A stretch of 59,113 nucleotides of DNA, filler included, from Stramenopiles sp. TOSAG23-3 (lineage: Eukaryota): the NCBI GenBank assembly GCA_900128585.1. It is 6 parts of 6 records of this genome, joined end to end, with 100 filler letters (N's around TTAATTAATTAA, not from the genome) between each part and the next. Parts side by side here need not be neighbours in the genome. Positions count along the whole stretch, not along the records: positions 17,765 to 35,425 come from LT642444.1; 5 more parts are not named here. One strand, written 5' to 3'. Positions 5,441 through 57,224 of this stretch are shown piece by piece. Under the pieces are notes generated by a model that saw nothing but the letters and a program-made list of their open reading frames with translations, was not told the DNA's origin and did no database searches. Position 1 is the first letter of the stretch, and the number at the start of each line of letters is the position of its first letter. A program made the translations under genes and the position numbers.

Positions 5441-6271
5441 TAAAACTCCACTCCTATATAAATATGTATAAAAATAAGTATATACTACTTGTATATGAAT
5501 ATAATTAATACTGAATAGCGTAACATATCGCTGCTATTATAATCCGATGTGTTACGAGGATATCACGGTTCCTGGTACCGTACCAGGTACGGTGCGGTAC
5601 GGCAAAGAAAAAAAAGGAAGAAAGATCATCTTCTTCTTCTCCTTTTTTCATTTCATCATCAACAAACAAAAAAGACAATCAAGAAAAAAAAAGAATAAAA
5701 TAAATTGTCTTATTTTTAACATTAACACAGCACAAAGAAAGAAGAAGAAGAAGAAAGAAGAAGAAAGAAGTAGTGACCATGATGATGATGAAGAAGAATG
5801 GACGAAAAAATGAGGTATACTAATATAGCATTGATAAAAAAGAAGAAGGAAGGAAGGAAGGAAGAAAAAAAGGAGGTTTTGATGATCGATGATGATGGTC
5901 GATGATGATATTATTATTGGATTATTATTATTTTACTATAATAATAATACCACATACCACCCACCAGTATAATTTTGATTCCTTCTTCTTCTTNNNNNNN
6001 NNATGATGATATGTTGGATTGATTGATTGATTGGTGACACATTCTTCTCATCGTCGTCGAATCAGGGAATTAAAAACAAAAAGATGTGGAAGTGTTTAGT
6101 TTTCATTCTTTAATTATTTCACACACATACACGACTTCAGTTCAGATTGTACAAAAGGAGGATCTTTTTTTATAGTTTTACAAGTTCATATATTGCTTAT
6201 TCTTTTATACACCTTTTTTTACGTCGAGCATTTGTTTAGTCAACAAACTGCATCTACCACGCACAGGGAAT

Positions 6272-17664: not shown

Positions 17665-17764
17665 NNNNNNNNNNNNNNNNNNNNNNNNNNNNNNNNNNNN
17701 NNNNNNNNTTAATTAATTAANNNNNNNNNNNNNNNNNNNNNNNNNNNNNNNNNNNNNNNNNNNN
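17665..17764. other. Artificial contig-joining linker
   Basis: N44-TTAATTAATTAA-N44 (stops in all six frames). Confidence 0.98.
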
Positions 17765-19509: not shown

Positions 19510-19635
19510 TATACGATATGAAATGATGATAATAGTACTTCGTAAAACAAATTATATAGTATAGTACTTCGTTATACGATATGAAATGATGATAATAGTA
19601 CTTCGTAAAACAAATTATATAGTATAGTACTTCGT
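19510..19635. repeat. Perfect 63-bp tandem duplication between convergent genes
   Basis: tatacgatatgaaatgatgataatagtacttcgtaaaacaaattatatagtatagtacttcgt at 19510-19572 and 19573-19635. Confidence 0.95.
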
Positions 19636-29507: not shown

Positions 29508-32500
29508 ATGAACGCTCTACGAATCGTATCTGTGTGCCTTTGGGTACTGGCGTCTGTTCACACAATAACAGGCGCCGCAACTACTGAGAAAATGCTCATC
29601 CAGAAGAAAGCATACGCTGGGTACTGTAACCGCAACAACAACCAAGCGGATTCAACCCAATACAGCCCTGACGGGGTTGGGTATATGAACACATTTTATC
29701 CTCTCACAGGCCAGGAAAACTCCCCCGCGGAGCGGCTAAAATGCCACGAACACTGCATCAGTACGTATAACGACAAGTTTTACCAAATCTTAGTGTACAC
29801 AAGCGGTACACATGAAGGAAAGTGTTACTGCTCCATCCCCTTTTCAAGCAATTGCGACTCGAACATGGCCGATGAGACAGCTTCGGAAACCTGGGTCTTC
29901 GTTGACGCGTACCGTGTTGTTCAGAGCGACAGAACGAAACCCTTAAACGCCAAACCGTTCAATCCCCCGGGTATCGGGCAGGATTTTAAAGTAGGGGTCA
30001 GTGTCGAAGAGCAAGACAGTGAGTTGGGCGGTGGAGAGCCATTTGGTTATGGCAAGCCGTCCATTTCAAATGTTAATTTAGACGTAATCAACACTGATGG
30101 ATCTGCGCAGATAAGCCTGTCGGGGGAAAATTTTGGACTCAATGTGAAATCTGGTTTTGGGGACCCTGCAAGGTCTGTATACTACAAATTTGTTTACGCC
30201 AGCCAGAACACTCTACCTCCACAACTCAACGATTACACATTATTAAAAGGGGTAAGTGTAAGCTCGACAACATTGGCATTCACCGCTCCCCCCCTGAATG
30301 AATTACCAAATGGGGCTAATGTTCCATCTAACACGGCAATCGAATTAGTGTTGGGGGTTACGGTCCAACCTTTATTGGGGCAGATGAGAATGTTCGACGC
30401 CAATGGCACCAAACGGATCGCGTACGGCAGTCCAAAGATAGACGCCTTGAGCAAAGTTGATAGCGGAAACGAAGGAGCGATCATCACTTTAAAAGGTTCA
30501 AACTTTGGAACATCGGCTGTTGGGGCACTTGAGGTAACCGATACGATAAGCAATACACTGGTAACGCCATCCATTGAAACTTGGTCCCATAATGAGATTC
30601 GGTTTAAGACTATTGTAGTTAATGGCAAAGTGAAACTTACCGTTGGCAAAATTTCTCCCGCCGAAAAAGCATGGAGTGGAGGATCCGTGGTGTTTGGCAC
30701 CATGGTCAACTCAATGAAACCCGATGAACCTGTGATAATTCCTACTAATGGTTTGTCCAGAGACTTATCGAACGGCGGCGTATTTAGAATACTCGAGTGT
30801 AAAGTGAATGGGCCAACGAAAGCCGATGTCAAAGTCGTATTTACATCGTCCGGGCAAGGTGCTGTAATTTCATACACAGCGCAATACTGCAATATCACCG
30901 AAACAACGGGCGATGAAAGTTCAATCAAATGTTTGACCCCAGCTGGAGTTGGAGAGGGCATGAGGGTATCTATTAACGTGGGGGGGCAGCTATCGCTAGA
31001 GACAAAAGAGTTTGATTACGGGAGACCATACGTTAGCAACTTTCGCGACCCTAACACACAGGAGGTTATACCACACCTCGCTACGCAGGGAAATGCCTCT
31101 ATACTTATAGCTGGTGGAAATTTCGGCGCAAACGTTAAAAAAGGGTTCGGCACGCCTGCAAGATCCGTTTACTACACCACTGTATACGGCGAAACAACTC
31201 AAACGCCTGTTTTCAATATTCAAACGTATAAGCGTGATTCAAGCGTAGAGGTAGATGTTAATACAGGCAGTCTACTATTCCGCGCCCCTCCCTTAGACCA
31301 GTTGCCCCCGGGGAAGGCTGGAACGCATTCGATATACTTGGTTGTGGGAGTAGCAATCCAGCCTGTAGGGGGGCAGCAAATCCTAGCGAAAAAGTTCCTT
31401 GCCTTTACCATTATTTTTGTCCTTTATGTTTGTGTAAGCGCAACAGTGAATCAGCAACGGAGGCTGGCGCATGCCATGGAGCAGCGATTCGTTGAACCTG
31501 CATTTGCACCGAGTTCATCCGACGGGTTTGGATTGTTGAAGTTCCAAGACATACGGAATTTTGAAGACATGTGGGCCTGGACGGACCAAATTTTACTCCC
31601 TGGCATTTACGACGAGACAATGAACTCTTTAGATAACAACAATGGAGACCCATTTGACGACCAAGTTGTTATCGACGATGCTAGCAATATACTGTTCGGG
31701 ATCCGTTTCCGACAGGTACGAATGTCCAGAGCCAAGACGGGATGCGATATACCCTTAAAAATCGTCAAGTCCGGTATTACGGGGGGGAAAACGTCCTGTG
31801 TGGCCGAATACTCCCAGGAATTCGTTGACCGGGCCATGTTCGGTGTGCCGACGGTTTCTTCCTCCTTGCGGTTTGACGGGTCGCAAACCAACCAAACGAT
31901 ATACCCATACAAATGGTTCCCTTCTTCCGATACCCAGGAGCCAGAGTACCGCGGCGCATTACAGAGCTACTATGGAGGCGGGTATGTAGTGGACATCCCC
32001 TTGAACCGTTCGAAAGCCTTTGATCAAGTTAATGAGATGAGATATGGGCGGGTCAAAGGCAGCAAAAACCTTGCTACAAAGGACACAAATTTGGATGAAA
32101 TAGTGCCCAACTCCATGTTTGTGGACCCAGAAGTAACACGCGCACTATTTGCAAGTTTTGGTATGTACCATTTAGGACTGAATTTGCACATGACCTGCCA
32201 GTTCGTGTTCGAGTGGCACCCCGGAGGTCAAATGGTGCCGTCCATTCAGTTCACTGGCACGCGCTTGTTTTTCCCTTTCACGGTGCACAGAGTAATAGAG
32301 GTTGTTCTCAACGTCCTGCTGAACCTCGGGATTGGGTACTATTGGGTCCAGCTGTTGATGGATTTCCGCGCGGGGTTGACAAAGTTAACGCCATGGCACG
32401 TGTTTGACACTGCAAGCATGACTTTGTTTACTTTTTTCACCTTGTCTTCAGTCCGTTCGATTATATTTGATTATCCCGGCAGAGACCTCATTACTGCGAT

Positions 32501-32828
32501 TAACTCAAAATCGCAAGCGTACTACAGCTTGCTGCCGCACATGGACGCTGCCCGCCAAGGACAGCAATTTGTTGGTGCAAACATGGTATTATGCGCCATA
32601 CGCGGGCTTCGTTATTTGCAAGTCTTTGACTCGCTGCGTGTTATATTGAGAGCCATTACAAACACTGCAGCGGATGTAGCAAATTTTTTAGTCATGCTGC
32701 TTATTATGGTCTTTGCTTTTGCCATGGGTGGTTTTTTCATATTTGGCCCACACATTTCCGGGTTTGAAACGATTGGGGTCCACAACCAAACGTCGATGAT
32801 CCCTGGCTTCGAGCAGCACGGCCCTTAG
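29508..32828 (+). CDS. Mosaic ORF: signal peptide, Cys module and IPT/TIG-like repeats (29508-31375) fused in frame to a polycystin (TRPP) S1-TOP-S5 fragment (31376-32780); lacks pore and S6
   Basis: Repeated 'YG.P.I..I.L.G.NFG' IPT-like units are abruptly followed by KKFLAFTIIFVL..MWAW..GIRFRQVR..YYGGGYVVD (polycystin TOP domain). The channel part stops at the start of the pore helix (FETIG). Confidence 0.8.
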   Translation: MNALRIVSVCLWVLASVHTITGAATTEKMLIQKKAYAGYCNRNNNQADSTQYSPDGVGYMNTFYPLTGQENSPAERLKCHEHCISTYNDKFYQILVYTSGTHEGKCYCSIPFSSNCDSNMADETASETWVFVDAYRVVQSDRTKPLNAKPFNPPGIGQDFKVGVSVEEQDSELGGGEPFGYGKPSISNVNLDVINTDGSAQISLSGENFGLNVKSGFGDPARSVYYKFVYASQNTLPPQLNDYTLLKGVSVSSTTLAFTAPPLNELPNGANVPSNTAIELVLGVTVQPLLGQMRMFDANGTKRIAYGSPKIDALSKVDSGNEGAIITLKGSNFGTSAVGALEVTDTISNTLVTPSIETWSHNEIRFKTIVVNGKVKLTVGKISPAEKAWSGGSVVFGTMVNSMKPDEPVIIPTNGLSRDLSNGGVFRILECKVNGPTKADVKVVFTSSGQGAVISYTAQYCNITETTGDESSIKCLTPAGVGEGMRVSINVGGQLSLETKEFDYGRPYVSNFRDPNTQEVIPHLATQGNASILIAGGNFGANVKKGFGTPARSVYYTTVYGETTQTPVFNIQTYKRDSSVEVDVNTGSLLFRAPPLDQLPPGKAGTHSIYLVVGVAIQPVGGQQILAKKFLAFTIIFVLYVCVSATVNQQRRLAHAMEQRFVEPAFAPSSSDGFGLLKFQDIRNFEDMWAWTDQILLPGIYDETMNSLDNNNGDPFDDQVVIDDASNILFGIRFRQVRMSRAKTGCDIPLKIVKSGITGGKTSCVAEYSQEFVDRAMFGVPTVSSSLRFDGSQTNQTIYPYKWFPSSDTQEPEYRGALQSYYGGGYVVDIPLNRSKAFDQVNEMRYGRVKGSKNLATKDTNLDEIVPNSMFVDPEVTRALFASFGMYHLGLNLHMTCQFVFEWHPGGQMVPSIQFTGTRLFFPFTVHRVIEVVLNVLLNLGIGYYWVQLLMDFRAGLTKLTPWHVFDTASMTLFTFFTLSSVRSIIFDYPGRDLITAINSKSQAYYSLLPHMDAARQGQQFVGANMVLCAIRGLRYLQVFDSLRVILRAITNTAADVANFLVMLLIMVFAFAMGGFFIFGPHISGFETIGVHNQTSMIPGFEQHGP

Positions 32829-32897
32829 CGATCGAATTAAAACATACGGCGAATCCGCAAATTTGGTAGGGATCTCTTCACTATCCTTCGTCTCCAT
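32781..32897 (-). CDS. N-terminal 39 codons of a gene whose remainder is 34136-34888 (+)
   Basis: ATG at 32897 next to an AT-rich spacer; METKDSEEIPTKFADSPYVLIRSLRAVLLEARDHRRLVV joins in frame to TMIFAFDGQ through the shared TG. Confidence 0.6.
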
Positions 32898-33514
32898 CTT
32901 TGCATATATGTAGAAATTCAAGAATTTCCAAAGTGATAAAACTCTTCAAATTTTGAATGCCATGTAATATGAAATTTGTTACTTCCCGAGCGAAATATCT
33001 AATGAAGAAATATATGAGATAATTTATCTTGTTTTAGTAGTCCTGATTTAATAATTAATCAACACAACACAACAACAAAAAATTAAAATAATAAAATTAT
33101 AATAATAAGAACTGTATATAGTTGTATTCTTCATAGTCGTCTTCTTTACATATGATTATAATAATAATTACTTTTTTATTATTAGTAATAGTAATAATGA
33201 ATCTGATAGATTTTTTTAATGTAACTTGCAATACATTAATGCCGGTTATAGCGTACTATGCTGTCCTTGTGTTTTTGTTTTTGCTTTGTTTTGGTTGATA
33301 CGGTATCTAATTTGAATCATATGCGCGATTATGAGTAAAACAAAAAGTTTCCAAAATAGATTAAAAAAATCTATCAGATTTACTACTTACTACTACTCTA
33401 TTCATAGTAGTACGGTATATATGTCACAACACAACGAACGACGGTCCCCGGACTTATTTCGTCGTTCTCTGCTGCTGGCTGCTGGTATAATATACTGATA
33501 TAATATTTATTCTC

Positions 33515-34135
33515 CTAATTATCACCACCCCAGCCATTGGCGACCATATTAAACTTCAAATTTGTTTTCTTTTTCTTGACTGACGCTACATGAAGAGGAT
33601 TATCCGTTGCATCTGCAGCATTTATACTTTCCCGCGTTAATCCAACTTGCTGCTTCAATCTTCGTATTTCCGCGTTCATTTTCTTGTTATCCCGCATAAG
33701 TTCGGTGGCCCTGGGCTTTCCTTTCCCGTCGACATTGACATTGCAATCTGTAATGAGAAACCATTTTTCGGAATCGATGTGACCATTGGTGCTGAGAAAA
33801 ACTCGTTTAGGGTAAAGGGGACCCATAACAACATTTCCGGGCCTCCAAAACTTAATATTAGATTGCGATTTTCCCACACTAACAAAGACATTGCCAGACG
33901 CGTACTGGGTTTCGAACCTTATTTGCGTGTGTGACCATTCCATGACTGTCGCAAAATCCGTCGGGGTATTAATATTTGTATCAATTCTTCCACATGTTTG
34001 GCTGGAGCAAAAATTCTCCCCCAACAAAACTACATAAAACCGGTCGCTGGTTATCTGCTGTTTAGCAATTGAATTTATTCGCGGGGCGTCATATTTGATA
34101 CGTTTCGTCCCATTTGTACCAAACATTGCATAATG
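33515..34135 (-). CDS. Continuation and C-terminus of the IPT/TIG-repeat gene (inverted piece)
   Basis: HYAMFGTNGTKRIKYDAPRI..WSHTQIRF matches repeat-1 QMRMFDANGTKRIAYGSPKI..WSHNEIRF. It ends in a coiled-coil/NPLH tail. Confidence 0.75.
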   Translation of the reverse strand, partial: HYAMFGTNGTKRIKYDAPRINSIAKQQITSDRFYVVLLGENFCSSQTCGRIDTNINTPTDFATVMEWSHTQIRFETQYASGNVFVSVGKSQSNIKFWRPGNVVMGPLYPKRVFLSTNGHIDSEKWFLITDCNVNVDGKGKPRATELMRDNKKMNAEIRRLKQQVGLTRESINAADATDNPLHVASVKKKKTNLKFNMVANGWGGDN

Positions 34136-34888
34136 ACAATGATATTTGCGTTCGATGGGCAATTGAAGTTAGTCGATCTTCAAAATGCATTTGAGGGCAG
34201 CGGGCTTGGGATTTTCCTGGAGTCGTGGACCCATGTCTATGAGAAGGTGGTCCGTGAAAGTGCGCGTGTGGAGGAAAAGGCAAAGAGGCTCCCCACGTGG
34301 AAAGCAAACCTATACGCGGCGGGTAAGTTTTTGCGGCTGGGGCCATCGCACTGGAAGCACACTTTCTTGGAGGCCCTTGCCATAAAACAAGAAGACCGTC
34401 GCAATTACGAAAAACTCCTCGGTGCCTTAATGGAGTGGCACGAACGCCCAAGCAAACGGCGGCTGCAGTTTATATCGATTTTTCAATTGAAAAATGAAGT
34501 GATGAAAACGGCATCCTACGACCACGCCGACGAAGTGTTTCGTCTATTAATTTTAAAATGGAAGTCATCAGCGCACCAGCCAAACTTTTTTTCCATGATT
34601 GAAAGGGACGAGGCGCTGAATGCCTTAATGATACGCAGGCAAAACATCCTTTACCAAAATGCGAATGTTTCGACGTTTGAAGAGCGGGAGCGGGGAATAC
34701 CTGTTGCAGAAATGAGTATTATCAGTACGGAAAAGTCCTTACAGTCTCTTCTGGCGTTAAAGAAGAAACGGGCTGAAAGAATCCAGCAGTTGGAAGGCGA
34801 AGTGTTTAAGTCGCGGAAGCACCTTTTTACCAAGCTGCAATCCGTTGAAAATAGATTGCAGGAATATGCTGCGAAAGTTTCCATGTAA
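34133..34888 (+). CDS. Hypothetical helical protein; probable 3' part of the gene starting at 32897 (-)
   Basis: 251-aa ORF with coding-like composition and no AT-rich promoter spacer upstream. Confidence 0.65.
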   Translation: MTMIFAFDGQLKLVDLQNAFEGSGLGIFLESWTHVYEKVVRESARVEEKAKRLPTWKANLYAAGKFLRLGPSHWKHTFLEALAIKQEDRRNYEKLLGALMEWHERPSKRRLQFISIFQLKNEVMKTASYDHADEVFRLLILKWKSSAHQPNFFSMIERDEALNALMIRRQNILYQNANVSTFEERERGIPVAEMSIISTEKSLQSLLALKKKRAERIQQLEGEVFKSRKHLFTKLQSVENRLQEYAAKVSM

Positions 34889-35425: not shown

Positions 35426-35525
35426 NNNNNNNNNNNNNNNNNNNNNNNNNNNNNNNNNNNNNNNNNNNNTTAATTAATTAANNNNNNNNNNNNNNNNNNN
35501 NNNNNNNNNNNNNNNNNNNNNNNNN
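35426..35525. other. Artificial contig-joining linker
   Basis: N44-TTAATTAATTAA-N44. Confidence 0.98.
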
Positions 35526-42216: not shown

Positions 42217-42440
42217 TTGGCTGTTATTTTAAGTAAAATTAAGTTTTATCTTCTTCACATATACACCGCGAAAGTGAATCTGCTCCTTTTGTCCATTAAA
42301 GGTTTACGTTCCTTTTCATATACTGCGAACTTATTTCTGCTCCTAAAATGTCTAAATCTAGATTTCAGTTCGCAGTACATTAATTTTAATTTTACTTAAA
42401 AACAAATTATACTTAAATAACAGCCAATTTTCTTGTTTTA
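42217..42440. repeat. Dispersed AT-rich repeat, two modules in inverted orientation (MITE-like)
   Basis: TTGGCTGTTATTTTAAGTA at 42217 and TACTTAAATAACAGCCAA at 42410-42427; the internal 42267-42334 is near-identical to 51249-51314. Confidence 0.85.
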
Positions 42441-51067: not shown

Positions 51068-51438
51068 TAAAAACAAGAAAATTGGCTGTTGTTATTTAAG
51101 TAATTAAAATAATTAATAAAAACTGATGAATTTTAGGCTTTTTTTTATTGTAAAAATTTACTTCGTAATTCGACTCTTACGAATTACCTTTTTATTAAAA
51201 ACAAAAACAAAAAATTGGCTGTTGTTTGAGTAATTAAAATTTAATTCACGCGAAAGTGAATCTGCTCCTTTTGTCCATTAAAGGTTTACGTTCCTTCATA
51301 TACTGCGAACTTATCTCTGACCTTTTTATTAATTCAAGAAAATTGGCTGTTATTTAAGTAATTAAAATTAATGTACTGCGAACTGAAATCTACTAAACAT
51401 TCGATGTTTACATTCCTTCATGTACTGCGAACTTATCT
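51068..51438. repeat. Array of the same dispersed repeat modules
   Basis: Three AAAATTGGCTGTT..AGTAATTAAAAT units and three TACTGCGAACT units. Confidence 0.88.
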
Positions 51439-51589: not shown

Positions 51590-52366
51590 TTAGTTCACCG
51601 TCGCCTTGTACTTTGCGTCGGCCTTCTTCGCCAAGAACTTTTGGTACCCCTCCCTCGAGCCGTACTTTTCAAGCTTTACTTTCCGAACGCTTTCGTCCTC
51701 ATCAAACCCTTTCAGCTTTCCTTTCACCCACTCGTCTAGCTTTTTACGGTATGAAGCAGCCATGGCCGGGGTAACACCAACCTTCTTTGCCACCGCCGAC
51801 TGGGCCTTTGCGATCGCCTGCCCCATCGCCATTTTGACCCACTTGGCCTCCGGGCTGAAGTCCGAAAGGGTCAGGTCTAAGCGCTTGAACAAGTCCCGTT
51901 GGTCGTCTATACTTGCAGAAAAAAATGCATCTCCCAAGACTTCCATGGGCCTACCGCAAAGGTTCATGATGTGCGATGCCCGTTGGTTTATTTGAACGTT
52001 TTCCTTTTGCCCAGCACTGTCGTCGCAGTACATGGACACCCCGTACCAGTTGTTTTCTTTCTTTGCCAGAAGAATAGGTTCCACGGCGACCATTTGCATC
52101 CCCATAAACTGGTCAAGCACCGCTGCTTGTTCCACCACATTAAAGTTTGGGTTTTTCTCCAAAATTTGTTTCACCACACCCTCTCGGTACGCGGCTTGCT
52201 GCTTCTTGCTCGACACCACGGCATTTTTTTTGTAGTGAACTTTGCACTGGTCTGTCAAACACTGGACGATCGTGCTACTATTGTACTCGCAAACAAGCTC
52301 TTGAATCGGGTCCTTTGGGTTCTTTGGTACCAAGACGAACTTGAAGGACTGCTTCGAAGACGACAT
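51590..52366 (-). CDS. Hypothetical protein (258 aa)
   Basis: ATG-started ORF with globular-looking core (VSMYCDD..NQRAS..VLGDAFF). Confidence 0.8.
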   Translation of the reverse strand: MSSSKQSFKFVLVPKNPKDPIQELVCEYNSSTIVQCLTDQCKVHYKKNAVVSSKKQQAAYREGVVKQILEKNPNFNVVEQAAVLDQFMGMQMVAVEPILLAKKENNWYGVSMYCDDSAGQKENVQINQRASHIMNLCGRPMEVLGDAFFSASIDDQRDLFKRLDLTLSDFSPEAKWVKMAMGQAIAKAQSAVAKKVGVTPAMAASYRKKLDEWVKGKLKGFDEDESVRKVKLEKYGSREGYQKFLAKKADAKYKATVN

Positions 52367-52933: not shown

Positions 52934-53071
52934 TCAATCGCCGGCAGTTGTGGTGGTAGTGGCGTTGCCGTCTTTGAGTTGAGGCATGCGGGCTTTTTTG
53001 TCGGTCCTTTTTCCCTTCGTGGTATCTATATATGCCATCGGTCGTTTTATGTCATTTGACAGTTCAAGGGG
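52934..53071 (-). CDS. 3'-terminal fragment of an unknown gene, cut at a chimeric junction
   Basis: Reads PLELSNDIKRPMAYIDTTKGKRTDKKARMPQLKDGNATTTTTAGD* into an AT-rich spacer. Confidence 0.45.
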   Translation of the reverse strand, partial: PLELSNDIKRPMAYIDTTKGKRTDKKARMPQLKDGNATTTTTAGD

Positions 53072-53145: not shown

Positions 53146-53245
53146 NNNNNNNNNNNNNNNNNNNNNNNNNNNNNNNNNNNNNNNNNNNNTTAATTAATTA
53201 ANNNNNNNNNNNNNNNNNNNNNNNNNNNNNNNNNNNNNNNNNNNN
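53146..53245. other. Artificial contig-joining linker
   Basis: N44-TTAATTAATTAA-N44. Confidence 0.98.
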
Positions 53246-55135
53246 CAAAACTTGAAACTGAACGAGCTCGTCGTTCTGACGAAGATGGACGATTTGGACG
53301 TCACTGGTGAGGATGTCGAGGAGGGCGACGACGAGCCCAAGCACAAGACCGCGAAAGAGCTCCTTGGGGAAGTGTCGGTGGACCCTGCCAAGATCGCGGA
53401 GGAGGAGGAGAAAGTCCGAGTCCTGGACCTAGAAACCGATGTGGACAAAGTGGCCGGGGGGATGACCACCATCATGACCGGCGTTGACTACAAATTGTTC
53501 GTTTACACGCCGAACAAGCTGGTCCGCGACTTTATTTTCTTCTTATGTTTCATGATTGCCATGAACGTGACCCTATTTTACCGCCGCGACGTCGATCACT
53601 CCTACTGGCTGGGGTACGTGGGCCGCCACAAGCTGGTCAACACCGGCTTCCTGTACCCTCATAATGAGGAGCTGCCGGAGTTGGACCTCACTGGAAAGTG
53701 GACCGGGCAGTACAAAACCTCCGTGCGCTTCGAGAAGCTCCAGTACGAAGAGATCGCCAACGCGGACCATATTTGGAACTGGCTCGAAGGGCCGATGTAC
53801 GAACTGCTCCACCCGAACAAGACGGGGCACATCGTCGGGGGCAACACGCAGATCGTGGGGAAAATCAGGCTGCGGCAGGTCCGGGTCAAGGCCGACGCGG
53901 GGTGCAAGATCAACCCGTTGGCAGAAAACTATGTGTCGCACTGCTACGCCTCCTTTCAGGAATCGACGCAGTCGGTCGACTCGTTCCATGACCACAAGTC
54001 CCCTGGGTTCACGTGGATACAGGGCAGCGATCTGGCCGGCGCCGGTAACAGCCACGATGGGTACTTTGCGTCATACACCCCGTCCGGGTTCGTGTACGAC
54101 GTGACCCCGTCCCAGGCCGCGTGGCCGGGCGCCATCGCTTCGCTGAAGAAGGGGCTCTGGATAGACCACCAGACACGCCTAATAGAGGTTAGCTACAACG
54201 TGTTCAACCCGAACTACAACGTGTACGCCACGGCAAACTACTGGATCGAAGTGTCCAGCTCAGGAAGGATGCACTCGACGTACAGAATTCGCCCCTACGT
54301 GCTGGACCTCTGTTTCGCGTGCGACGGCTGGTGGTTCGCGGAAATCTCCACGTACGCCCTGAGCATCTTCTTGTTCGCGGCTGAATTTTATGAGATCTAC
54401 TTTTTCTTCAAGGTGAAGCAGCCGACGAGACTTTTCTGTCGCCACCCTTGGCACGCCCACCATTTGCTGGTGTTTGCGTTCCTCTTTGCGTCTGTGATTT
54501 CAAGAATTTACATGTACAACCTGGCCGGGACCTACCTGGAGCTTATCTGGTCCGACGAAATGAAGGAGAACTACGTCGACGTGCAACGGTACGCGTACTT
54601 GTACGAACTCACCTTCGCGTTCGAGGCCCTCGTCATTTTTTTCGCAGCCTTTAGAATTTTCAAGTTCATGGGTCATTTTCGAACGTTCGACCAGTTCACA
54701 AAAGTTTTCGTACAAGCAGGCCTGGAGATTATGTTCTTCACCGTCCTGTTTTCCACGACGTTTTTTGGCTTTGCCGTCCTGGCCCACAACATATATGGGA
54801 GCTCCATCGTATCCTACAATACCATCATGGCAAGCATCAAGGCTTTGCTGAAAATGACGGTCGGGATAATAGACTACGAAGAAATGCGGCTGGTGGACCC
54901 GGTGTGGACCCCGGTATTCTTCGCGTGCTACATTGTTTTCATTGGGATGATTCTGATAAACGTCTTCCTCGCCATTCTGAATACGTCGTACACGGAAGTG
55001 CGCACAGAAATAAACGCAGAAGAGCGACGGTTGAAGCAGTTGAAAGCCCTGCGCCCTGAGAAGGACAAGCATGACTACAAACTGAAAGACAACCTTCTCG
55101 AAATATTGGACCTTCGAAAAACGTTCAATGCTGCC
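53246..55135 (+). CDS. Polycystin/TRPP (PKD2-type) cation channel, partial at both ends
   Basis: S1, TOP domain (IWNWL, GKIRLRQVRV, WIDHQTR, FNPNYN), S2-S5, pore helix (LLKMTVG), S6 (LINVFLAILNTSY). The ORF spans the whole contig. Confidence 0.92.
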
Positions 55136-55235
55136 NNNNNNNNNNNNNNNNNNNNNNNNNNNNNNNNNNNNNNNNNNNNTTAATTAATTAANNNNNNNNN
55201 NNNNNNNNNNNNNNNNNNNNNNNNNNNNNNNNNNN
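55136..55235. other. Artificial contig-joining linker
   Basis: N44-TTAATTAATTAA-N44. Confidence 0.98.
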
Positions 55236-55472: not shown

Positions 55473-56627
55473 TCAGGTGGTGAACTTTGTAATTTTGGAC
55501 GGGCAATCTCTTCGCATTTCCCACAGAGGTACGTGGTCAAACTGCAAACCATCCAACCACGATCCCTCAGCAACTGACAATATCTGACCTGTAGTGGTGG
55601 ACTTTATTTCTCCGCGTACGTGATCGGAAACGGTGCGGCTTTGGAAGAGACTTTCAACGCCAGTTTTCAGGTAAGGGTTAAATTTCAAGACACATTCCAG
55701 TTTATTTTCGGAATCAAAAAACTTCATCTCTCCAATCAGCTCCGTTATGCGATCCCCCCACATGACTCCAGCCATCGATACTGTCGGCAAGGTGTAGCAG
55801 ATACTGCTGCCGTCGCTGAATTCCACTTTAGTAAGCCCTTGCCAATTTGTTTCTATCGTATTGCCCTTGAATAAAGTCACCATTTCCCAAGTTCTGGATT
55901 AAATTTAAATGTGAAAGAAAAGACAAGAATTTAGAAATGTTAGTTCATCGTTTCAGAAAAATCCATGCCAACAAAAAAAACGTTTTACTTACCCAGAAAC
56001 CCGCCATCCCGAACTCGTCTTATTTTCTAGCAACGCATCGTCGCTGTTATCTGTACCTACATAGCTGCCTGCGCCTTCTGAAAGATATCCTTCTTCGTCG
56101 CTTTGTTCGGTGTCGTTCCCGCTACTAAAATTATAATCCACTTTCCGGTTCTTCTCGAAGATAGATTTAGCTCCGCAAGCATCGAATGAGACTTTTGTTG
56201 GCTGCTTACCAATCAATTTGATGTCAATCCTGGAGCCATTTTCCATTTCACCTGAGAAAACATCACCGGTATCTGGTATGTAGGGGCGCGACTGCCTTGC
56301 ATTTGTATGCAGCCCTGCTATCGCAAATGCCATGACGTACTTGAAGCGTTGTAGGGGCATGCTGGATTTTTTGGCGTCTTCCAAAAAGTTTGGTGCGTAA
56401 ACAAAGTTATCGGAGCACGCCTCTAAAACCGATCTGTCTTCCACCGACAGCATCGCCGTCGCCATCGCGTCTGCGGGGTTTCCATCTATACTGCCCGTTA
56501 TTGCGTCGGATAACACATCGACTAACAGCCGCCGGGTCCCGTGAGCTTTTTTTCGAGACGAGTCGAGTTTTTCATGTTGTATACCCTTGAAAAAGGATGA
56601 ATAAGGAAAGCTGATGAAAGTACTCAT
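55473..56627 (-). CDS. Oxysterol-binding protein-related (ORD) gene, two exons, intron 55894-55992
   Basis: GG|GTAAGT donor, CTAAC branch-like motif and CCAG| acceptor join the exons in frame (WRVSGTWEMVTLFKGN). ORD-like YAPNFLE..PLQRFKYVMAFAIAGLH and VEFSDG..GVMWGDR are present. The 5' end is uncertain. Confidence 0.8.
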
Positions 56628-57124: not shown

Positions 57125-57224
57125 NNNNNNNNNNNNNNNNNNNNNNNNNNNNNNNNNNNNNNNNNNNNTTAATTAATTAANNNNNNNNNNNNNNNNNNNN
57201 NNNNNNNNNNNNNNNNNNNNNNNN
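57125..57224. other. Artificial contig-joining linker
   Basis: N44-TTAATTAATTAA-N44. Confidence 0.98.

Follow-up and report, generated by a model that had tools for sequence, protein, structure and literature searches.

In the assembly of Stramenopiles sp. TOSAG23-3 (GCA_900128585.1), we analysed a stretch of 59,113 nucleotides, filler included (the window, i.e., the whole stretch of DNA that was studied), and within it a locus at 29508-34888 at which the coding sequences of two genes, a putative IPT/TIG-repeat surface receptor and a polycystin-2-like cation channel, lie out of order. The locus is wholly contained in one 17.7-kb contig (17765-35425) that is free of any N. Its most conspicuous feature is an open reading frame (ORF) of 1106 aa (29508-32828, plus strand), which starts with a hydrophobic N-terminus, proceeds through IPT/TIG repeats and then switches abruptly to polycystin near 31380 (~residue 625). 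A short minus-strand ORF starts at 32897, and a 251-aa plus-strand ORF occupies 34133-34888. The IPT reading itself continues on the minus strand below ~34125-34135, where a 215-aa ORF (33515-34162) holds an IPT-like repeat. An earlier interpretation made from the nucleotides by themselves (the sequence-only reading) had described a scrambled locus whose undoing restores two genes, and to this extent it was right: ORF analysis and Pfam both place the abrupt break near 31380, the ORF reading bears out the continuation on the opposite strand, the second-gene start at 32897 is real, since it matches the N-termini of four proteins (P0004, P0005, P0006 and P0012), 34133-34888 is real coding sequence, and two genes are indeed recovered, through native joints and re-ordered ORFs of 828 and 758 aa.

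As found in the window, the locus consists of four blocks in the order A|B|C|D. Block A (29508-31384, plus strand) is the 5' part of the receptor gene and encodes a putative signal peptide, a Cys-rich head and IPT super-repeats, with a TIG domain. Fused to it in frame is block B (31385-32778, plus strand), the body of the channel gene from the last letter of codon 40 to the first letter of codon 505, which includes helix S1, the polycystin domain and helices S2-S5. Block C (32779-34124, minus strand) is inverted and displaced, its native reverse complement sitting between A and B. It carries the start of the channel gene (32779-32897, minus strand; an ATG at 32897 and 39 codons plus 2 letters), the A+T-rich spacer between the two genes (32898-33514, GC 0.35) and the 3' end of the receptor gene (33515-34124, minus strand), where one IPT-like repeat precedes a cytoplasmic tail that ends with the stop at 33515-33517 and which contains a non-native joint at 33733/33734. 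Block D (34125-34888, plus strand) is the 3' part of the channel gene, with the pore region, a coiled-coil tail and the stop at 34886-34888.

Native order of the locus and its true breakpoints

The native order, A(..31384), reverse complement of C(32779-34124), B(31385-32778), D(34125..), was established from contigs of three independent DNA runs, five independent proteins and one orthologue of 40% identity (P0004). Public sequencing runs that hold part of the stretch number 20, from 13 studies, and four of these runs were compared with the window: X2, X3 and X7 (DNA or of unknown kind, from three different studies) and X15 (RNA). This comparison rests on contigs, which may hide rare variants, and the joints and pieces referred to here are those listed. 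The RNA run yielded seven short contigs, none of them at any joint, and is uninformative on transcripts of either form.

All three native joints are present in these data. The joint between A and the inverted C (31383 to 34125, on opposite strands) occurs in X7 and in a 17,989-letter contig of X2; the joint between the inverted C and B (31385 to 32779, opposite strands) occurs in X2 and X3; and the joint between B and D (32778 to 34125, skipping 1346) occurs in X2 and X7, with X3 adding, behind 32778, a loose end of 13 letters identical to window 34125-34137. Conversely, no listed joint or contig piece of X2, X3 or X7 bridges any of the window's own three junctions. From the X2, X3 and X7 contigs, the true breakpoints fall at 31384|31385, 32778|32779 and 34124|34125, with one letter ambiguous at the first. 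When a script re-ordered the window at these points, two complete ORFs emerged: an 828-aa IPT/TIG receptor and a 758-aa polycystin-2-like channel. The native locus comprises two co-oriented genes, a very large IPT/TIG-repeat surface receptor followed, after a spacer of ~0.6 kb, by a polycystin-2-like cation channel of 783 aa. Relative to it, the window has block 32779-34124 cut out, inverted and set 1394 bp downstream, and has four deletions besides. No base was lost or gained at the three main junctions, where the three native breakpoints are used again; the hops are 1346 bp (direct), 1394 bp (inverted) and 2740 bp (inverted).

These breakpoints change much of the detail that had been proposed for the locus. 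The inverted block and the opposite-strand continuation do exist, with the true breakpoints 3-11 nt away from where they had been put (31375, 32781/82 and 34135). The 828-aa receptor join was correct in length and frame, and wrong in four residues at the joint, which had been taken from 34126-34135 and belong to the polycystin gene. The supposed 1407-bp insert at 31376-32782, to be removed by excision, is actually the body of the polycystin gene, located between the start of the presumed second gene and its end; accordingly, the 289-aa product proposed for that gene is a false join of the channel's first 39 codons to its last 250, in which ~467 codons are skipped and the frame is kept by coincidence. 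That the joins occur without loss of bases also holds at the true breakpoints. Four further discontinuities had escaped notice. One excision and one inversion at CA/TG dinucleotides are hence unsupported, the real change being a displaced inverted block plus four deletions.

The channel gene and the fused reading frame

Independent copies of the channel gene were found by three protein searches and two cluster look-ups. P0003 (631 aa) shares 351 of 352 residues with the window from block B on and then passes directly into the 34127+ frame. P0005 and P0006 are each 783 aa long, on contigs of 4,340 and 23,380 bp, and follow the minus-strand residues from 32897, then block B, to end at 34885. All three read B straight into D with 25 more residues than the window has, which in P0003 form a hydrophobic helix; P0010 likewise carries the extra helix. 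P0012 (183 aa) reads across the joint between the inverted C and B, as P0005 and P0006 do. The gene start in block C agrees without mismatch with the N-termini of P0005, P0006 and P0012, and it also corresponds to residues 10-47 of P0004. Block B is identical to residues 41-504 of P0006, and the re-ordered 758-aa channel agrees with P0006 at 758 of 758 shared residues and differs from P0005 by 2 mismatches. The 801-aa orthologue P0004 aligns end to end with the re-ordered gene (residues 4-757 against 10-801), and a tblastn of P0004 on the window recovered, in order, 32888-32766 (minus strand), 31377-32774 (plus strand) and 34088-34882 (plus strand). A scan of Joint Genome Institute (JGI) metagenomes with block B gave 66 pattern matches and no relatives, and is uninformative either way, as the collection does not contain this organism.

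The native gene is of the polycystin-2-like (PKD/TRPP) type. P0006 has a Polycystin_dom match (4.3e-18) between S1 and S2, and a full PKD_channel match (1.7e-12, profile 14-222 of 225) with pore and S6. In the 1106-aa fused ORF, Polycystin_dom is found (1.8e-17), PKD_channel is cut off at profile position 167 of 225, and both pore and S6 are missing. Moreover, as a putative signal peptide and an extracellular receptor directly precede S1, the polycystin domain of the fused ORF would lie on the cytoplasmic side of the membrane. We infer that the 1106-aa ORF is not a gene of the organism.

Two public gene models, P0001 (g6161.t1) and P0007 (g6160.t1), do carry joints of the window type, namely A|B and B|C. 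Their source sequence departs slightly from that of the window, by two residues (X2 and X7 also vary at those sites) and by having the 75 bp of S6. P0001, in which IPT/TIG is fused to polycystin, is chimeric, and P0007 is an orphaned channel tail. Spurious introns occur in these models as well, with a micro-exon of only 4 residues and a GT-AG 'intron' of 153 bp that cuts into sequence coding for a helix.

Another contig of the window holds a second polycystin-type channel gene, complete, of 643 aa (53252-55183, plus strand; Polycystin_dom 2e-26, PKD_channel 3e-24), which has only ~20% identity to P0004.

Further discontinuities in the receptor gene and the spacer

Besides the three main junctions, four more non-native joints were found, bringing the number within 5.4 kb to seven. 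At 29958-29963, X2 and X3 diverge from the window and have loose ends. At 30846-30851, window positions 30851 and 30846 are separated by 9,414 letters in the 17,989-letter X2 contig. At 33733/33734, contigs of X2, X3 and X7 all cease to match, and the same X2 contig is ~4.1 kb longer there. At 34203/34204, extra letters are present in X2 and X3; in a 3,010-letter contig of X2 they number 75, i.e., 25 codons, which encode helix S6. These 25 codons are nowhere else in the window, where tblastn and motif scans gave chance-level matches only. The overlaps at the deletion joints amount to 6, 6 and 2 nt. Collapse of repeats by k-mer was considered for 29958-29963 and 30846-30851, both of which sit in repeat motifs, and was rejected, as a 6-letter overlap is too short for a de Bruijn assembler.

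What the window presents as an IPT gene is thus a truncated mosaic of a far longer repeat gene. The receptor ORF has a hydrophobic N-terminus and a single TIG match in Pfam (3.6e-9). An independent fragment, P0013, shares exactly the last 72 residues of the receptor tail, preceded there by two hydrophobic helices that have no counterpart in the window's shortened copy and were seen only in this fragment. A whole-library search with the 3' part of the receptor returned five hits, P0013 alone being from this gene, and no longer relatives were found among proteins of 355-2000 aa.

In the spacer, many contigs break at 33200 and 33249, around a short repeated element at ~33200-33250. In the bin 33120-33310, words reach a depth of 106 (X2) and 62 (X3), rising at place 33224 to ~496 and 296, respectively. 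The element is flanked by a 37-nt inverted repeat (33195-33231/33349-33385, 84%) and is possibly similar to a miniature inverted-repeat transposable element. In addition, X2 and X3 have 3 letters in place of window 33362-33398.

Search for recombination signatures

We looked for traces that a dedicated recombination system would be expected to share with known ones. The sequence common to both sides at the true junctions is 0, 0 and 1 nt long, and the CA/TG matched cores proposed in the sequence-only reading are not at the breakpoints; since 96% of random places in the region have a CA or TG no more than 10 nt away, their presence near breakpoints means nothing. Neither direct nor inverted repeats were found at 31384/5, 32778/9 or 34124/5, and none of the three breakpoints showed, on inspection by eye, a restriction site or the marks of a transposon (TA, TTAA or a target duplication). 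Pointer repeats and eliminated spacers are also absent: the blocks abut, partitioning the native sequence with an overlap of 0-1 nt. A Pfam scan of 24 window ORFs (4 at the locus and 20 other long ones) identified no recombinase, integrase or transposase domain. Both orientations were not seen to coexist, the contigs of X2, X3 and X7, which may hide rare variants, showing native joints only.

Origin of the rearranged form

The window's arrangement looks private to the source of the contig. In exact look-ups against a collection of 15 billion proteins, none of five window-specific ORFs was found, as opposed to six of ten other long ORFs of the window, which occur on contigs of up to 81 kb. Furthermore, the coding sequence has not diverged from that of P0006, which implies that the rearranged form is either very young or not biological; seven non-native joints in 5.4 kb of otherwise undiverged coding sequence count in favor of an artefact. 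The end of another contig (53072-53145) is a perfect 74-nt inverted copy of 51661-51734, located 1,337 nt upstream. The transition at 53071/53072 is abrupt, and the copy looks like an inverted chimeric read that the assembler followed. This inverted end and the fragmentary contigs (2-18 kb) were counted as signs of a chimera-prone assembly.

We consider that the rearranged contig is probably an artefact of amplification or assembly. The 17.7-kb contig would be an aberrant derivative of the native locus that arose outside normal biology, in which the receptor 3' end, the spacer and the channel's first 39 codons (32779-34124) would have been inverted and placed behind the S1-S5 region of the channel, and from which at least four internal stretches would be missing, at 29958-29963, at 30846-30851 (~9.4 kb), at 33733/33734 (~4.1 kb) and at 34203/34204 (75 bp). 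Template switching or the joining of fragments during whole-genome amplification of very little DNA would be the likeliest origin of such molecules, which an assembler would then have followed through a repeat-rich, unevenly covered locus. In a study of phi29 multiple displacement amplification (MDA), 85% of chimeras are reported to be inverted, most spanning <10 kb, and among inverted ones of <10 kb, complementarity of at least 2 bp is found in 93.5% (Lasken & Stockwell 2007, PMC1855051). For input near that of a single cell, another report gives one chimeric event per 3.4-10.9 kb and a likeliest distance of 750-1200 nt (bioRxiv 10.1101/2022.08.13.503872). All three hops at our locus (1346, 1394 and 2740 bp; one direct, two inverted) join places less than 10 kb apart and are within the usual range of MDA chimeras, whereas a complementarity of at least 2 nt is lacking at the three main joins.

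Several observations weigh against this explanation. Three lossless junctions reuse the same three breakpoints, which independent mis-priming would not predict, and the lossless joins are the one feature that ordinary amplification chimeras explain poorly. The junctions share 0, 0 and 1 nt, as compared with the at least 2 bp of most nearby inverted chimeras (93.5% in PMC1855051). Run X1, a possible source of the contig, holds 0.99 of the sampled words, so that it probably contains most junction words, which makes an error of computation alone an unlikely cause. P0001 and P0007, which derive from a slightly different sequence, share the A|B and B|C joints; should their assembly derive from a different set of cells, the lineage in question would truly carry the rearrangement. 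Finally, the reading frame is kept at 5 of 5 testable non-native joints, two of which lie in repeat motifs; that the other three would keep it by chance has a probability of 1 in 27.

Several of these points would be accounted for by a genuine structural variant, private to the sequenced cell or clone, which is the main alternative and a serious one, though less likely. Three double-strand breaks would have been rejoined without loss, with block C moved and inverted and the deletions produced in the same event, as in a small chromothripsis, leaving a null allele of both genes. Lossless, homology-free joins that reuse three breakpoints are what cutting and rejoining predicts, X1 holds nearly all the sampled words, and two of the joints recur in gene models from a non-identical assembly. 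However, the variant was not seen in the three independent DNA runs or the five independent proteins, it calls for seven new joints within 5.4 kb without any change of the coding sequence relative to P0006, and it would destroy a conserved channel gene; also, the assembly of the window and that of P0001/P0007 may share reads. Both an artefact and a one-off haplotype had been listed as alternatives in the sequence-only reading, and both fit the evidence. Its preferred idea, a programmed or serine-recombinase-type shuffling of surface receptors, whether by inversion as in invertases and shufflons or by unscrambling as in ciliates, appears very improbable. It would explain the lossless permutation of segments and the in-frame receptor-channel fusion, but at the breakpoints there is no shared core beyond 0, 0 and 1 nt and there are no repeats, none of the 24 ORFs encodes a recombinase or transposase domain, the rearranged form was seen in none of three DNA runs and each data set compared shows one form only, the blocks abut without pointers or spacers, stop codons are standard, and the fused product lacks pore and S6 and would have the wrong topology. 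A related proposition, that a wild cell lineage really carries the rearranged DNA, created by a homology-independent cutting, inverting and pasting of receptor and channel coding blocks that loses no base and tends to keep the frame (at all five testable joints), strikes us as similarly far-fetched. Least credible of all is that the window preserves the ancestral or normal order, the colinear form being derived, or that both forms are spliced from the same DNA. The open 1106-aa frame is all that speaks for it, and P0004, at 40% identity, is colinear with the re-ordered gene and not with the window. Splicing was rejected as the source of the B-to-D join, given that DNA contigs hold the native joint and that no AG acceptor precedes 34125; nor can splicing join the channel's first 39 codons, which are on the opposite strand.

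Like phi29 MDA chimeras, the locus has inverted joins between places 1.3-2.7 kb apart, direct deletions and several events per few kb, and the setting, a fragmentary assembly of an uncultured marine protist, is alike as well; unlike them, in that these are described as arising one at a time, with 2-21 nt of complementarity and an intervening deletion, it has three reused breakpoints joined without loss at 0-1 nt (PMC1855051). With site-specific inversion systems (serine and tyrosine invertases, shufflons) it shares lossless permutation and inversion between fixed points, yet it has neither inverted sites nor a shared core, occurs in one form only, yields a broken gene as product, and lacks a recombinase domain among the 24 window ORFs scanned. 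As in the window, the coding pieces of scrambled germline genes in spirotrich ciliates follow another order and orientation than in the gene that is expressed. The window differs from these in having no pointers or eliminated spacers, in using the standard code, in involving two multi-kb genes on one molecule, and in being short of segments rather than carrying extra ones. Chromothripsis-like variants are characterized by clustered breakpoints, random order and orientation of pieces, some loss, and little or no homology at the joints. The locus resembles such end-joining variants in its breakpoints clustered within a few kb, its lost pieces and the little homology at its joins; on present data, an event of this kind is not distinguishable from one in vitro, and it was not seen in the natural populations sampled.

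Other features of the stretch

At least six separate contigs, each 2-18 kb long, are strung together in the window. The gene content is eukaryotic, with genes for proteasome, CLC channel, EF-hand, PHD and SH3 proteins according to Pfam scans of window ORFs; coding sequences end in standard stop codons and spacers are A+T-rich. Between the contigs lie five identical spacers of 100 nt (17665-17764, 35426-35525, 53146-53245, 55136-55235 and 57125-57224), each composed of N44 + TTAATTAATTAA + N44, where TTAATTAATTAA is a 12-nt six-frame stop linker in the middle; because of these spacers, gene order across those points carries no meaning. Further N gaps are located at 5994 (9 N) and 9298 (69 N).

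A perfect 63-nt tandem duplication is found at 19510-19635, and a perfect 48-nt direct repeat (42267-42314 and 51249-51296) has its copies 8,982 nt apart in one contig. A 212-aa fragment of an oxysterol-binding protein (55992-56627, minus strand) is cut by contig ends; its cluster relatives, at 90% identity or more, are 820-857 aa long and come from other assemblies.

Significance

The main value of these findings is one of correction: P0001 and P0007, apparent products of this aberrant contig, would mislead surveys of domain architecture and claims of 'TIG-polycystin' fusions. The findings also illustrate how a reconstruction from sequence alone, plausible and in frame, can misplace the breakpoints and pair the wrong pieces. 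If the contig is a product of amplification in vitro, its lossless three-break permutation would represent an unusual chimera, relevant to the screening of single-cell assemblies. Were the improbable cutting, inverting and pasting in a wild lineage true, it would amount to a eukaryotic mechanism of receptor shuffling without a known recombinase signature.

As for the native genes, animal fibrocystin is an IPT/TIG-rich receptor that works with polycystin-2. By analogy, the native adjacency of the IPT/TIG receptor and the polycystin-2-like channel in this stramenopile may reflect a functional pairing of the two.

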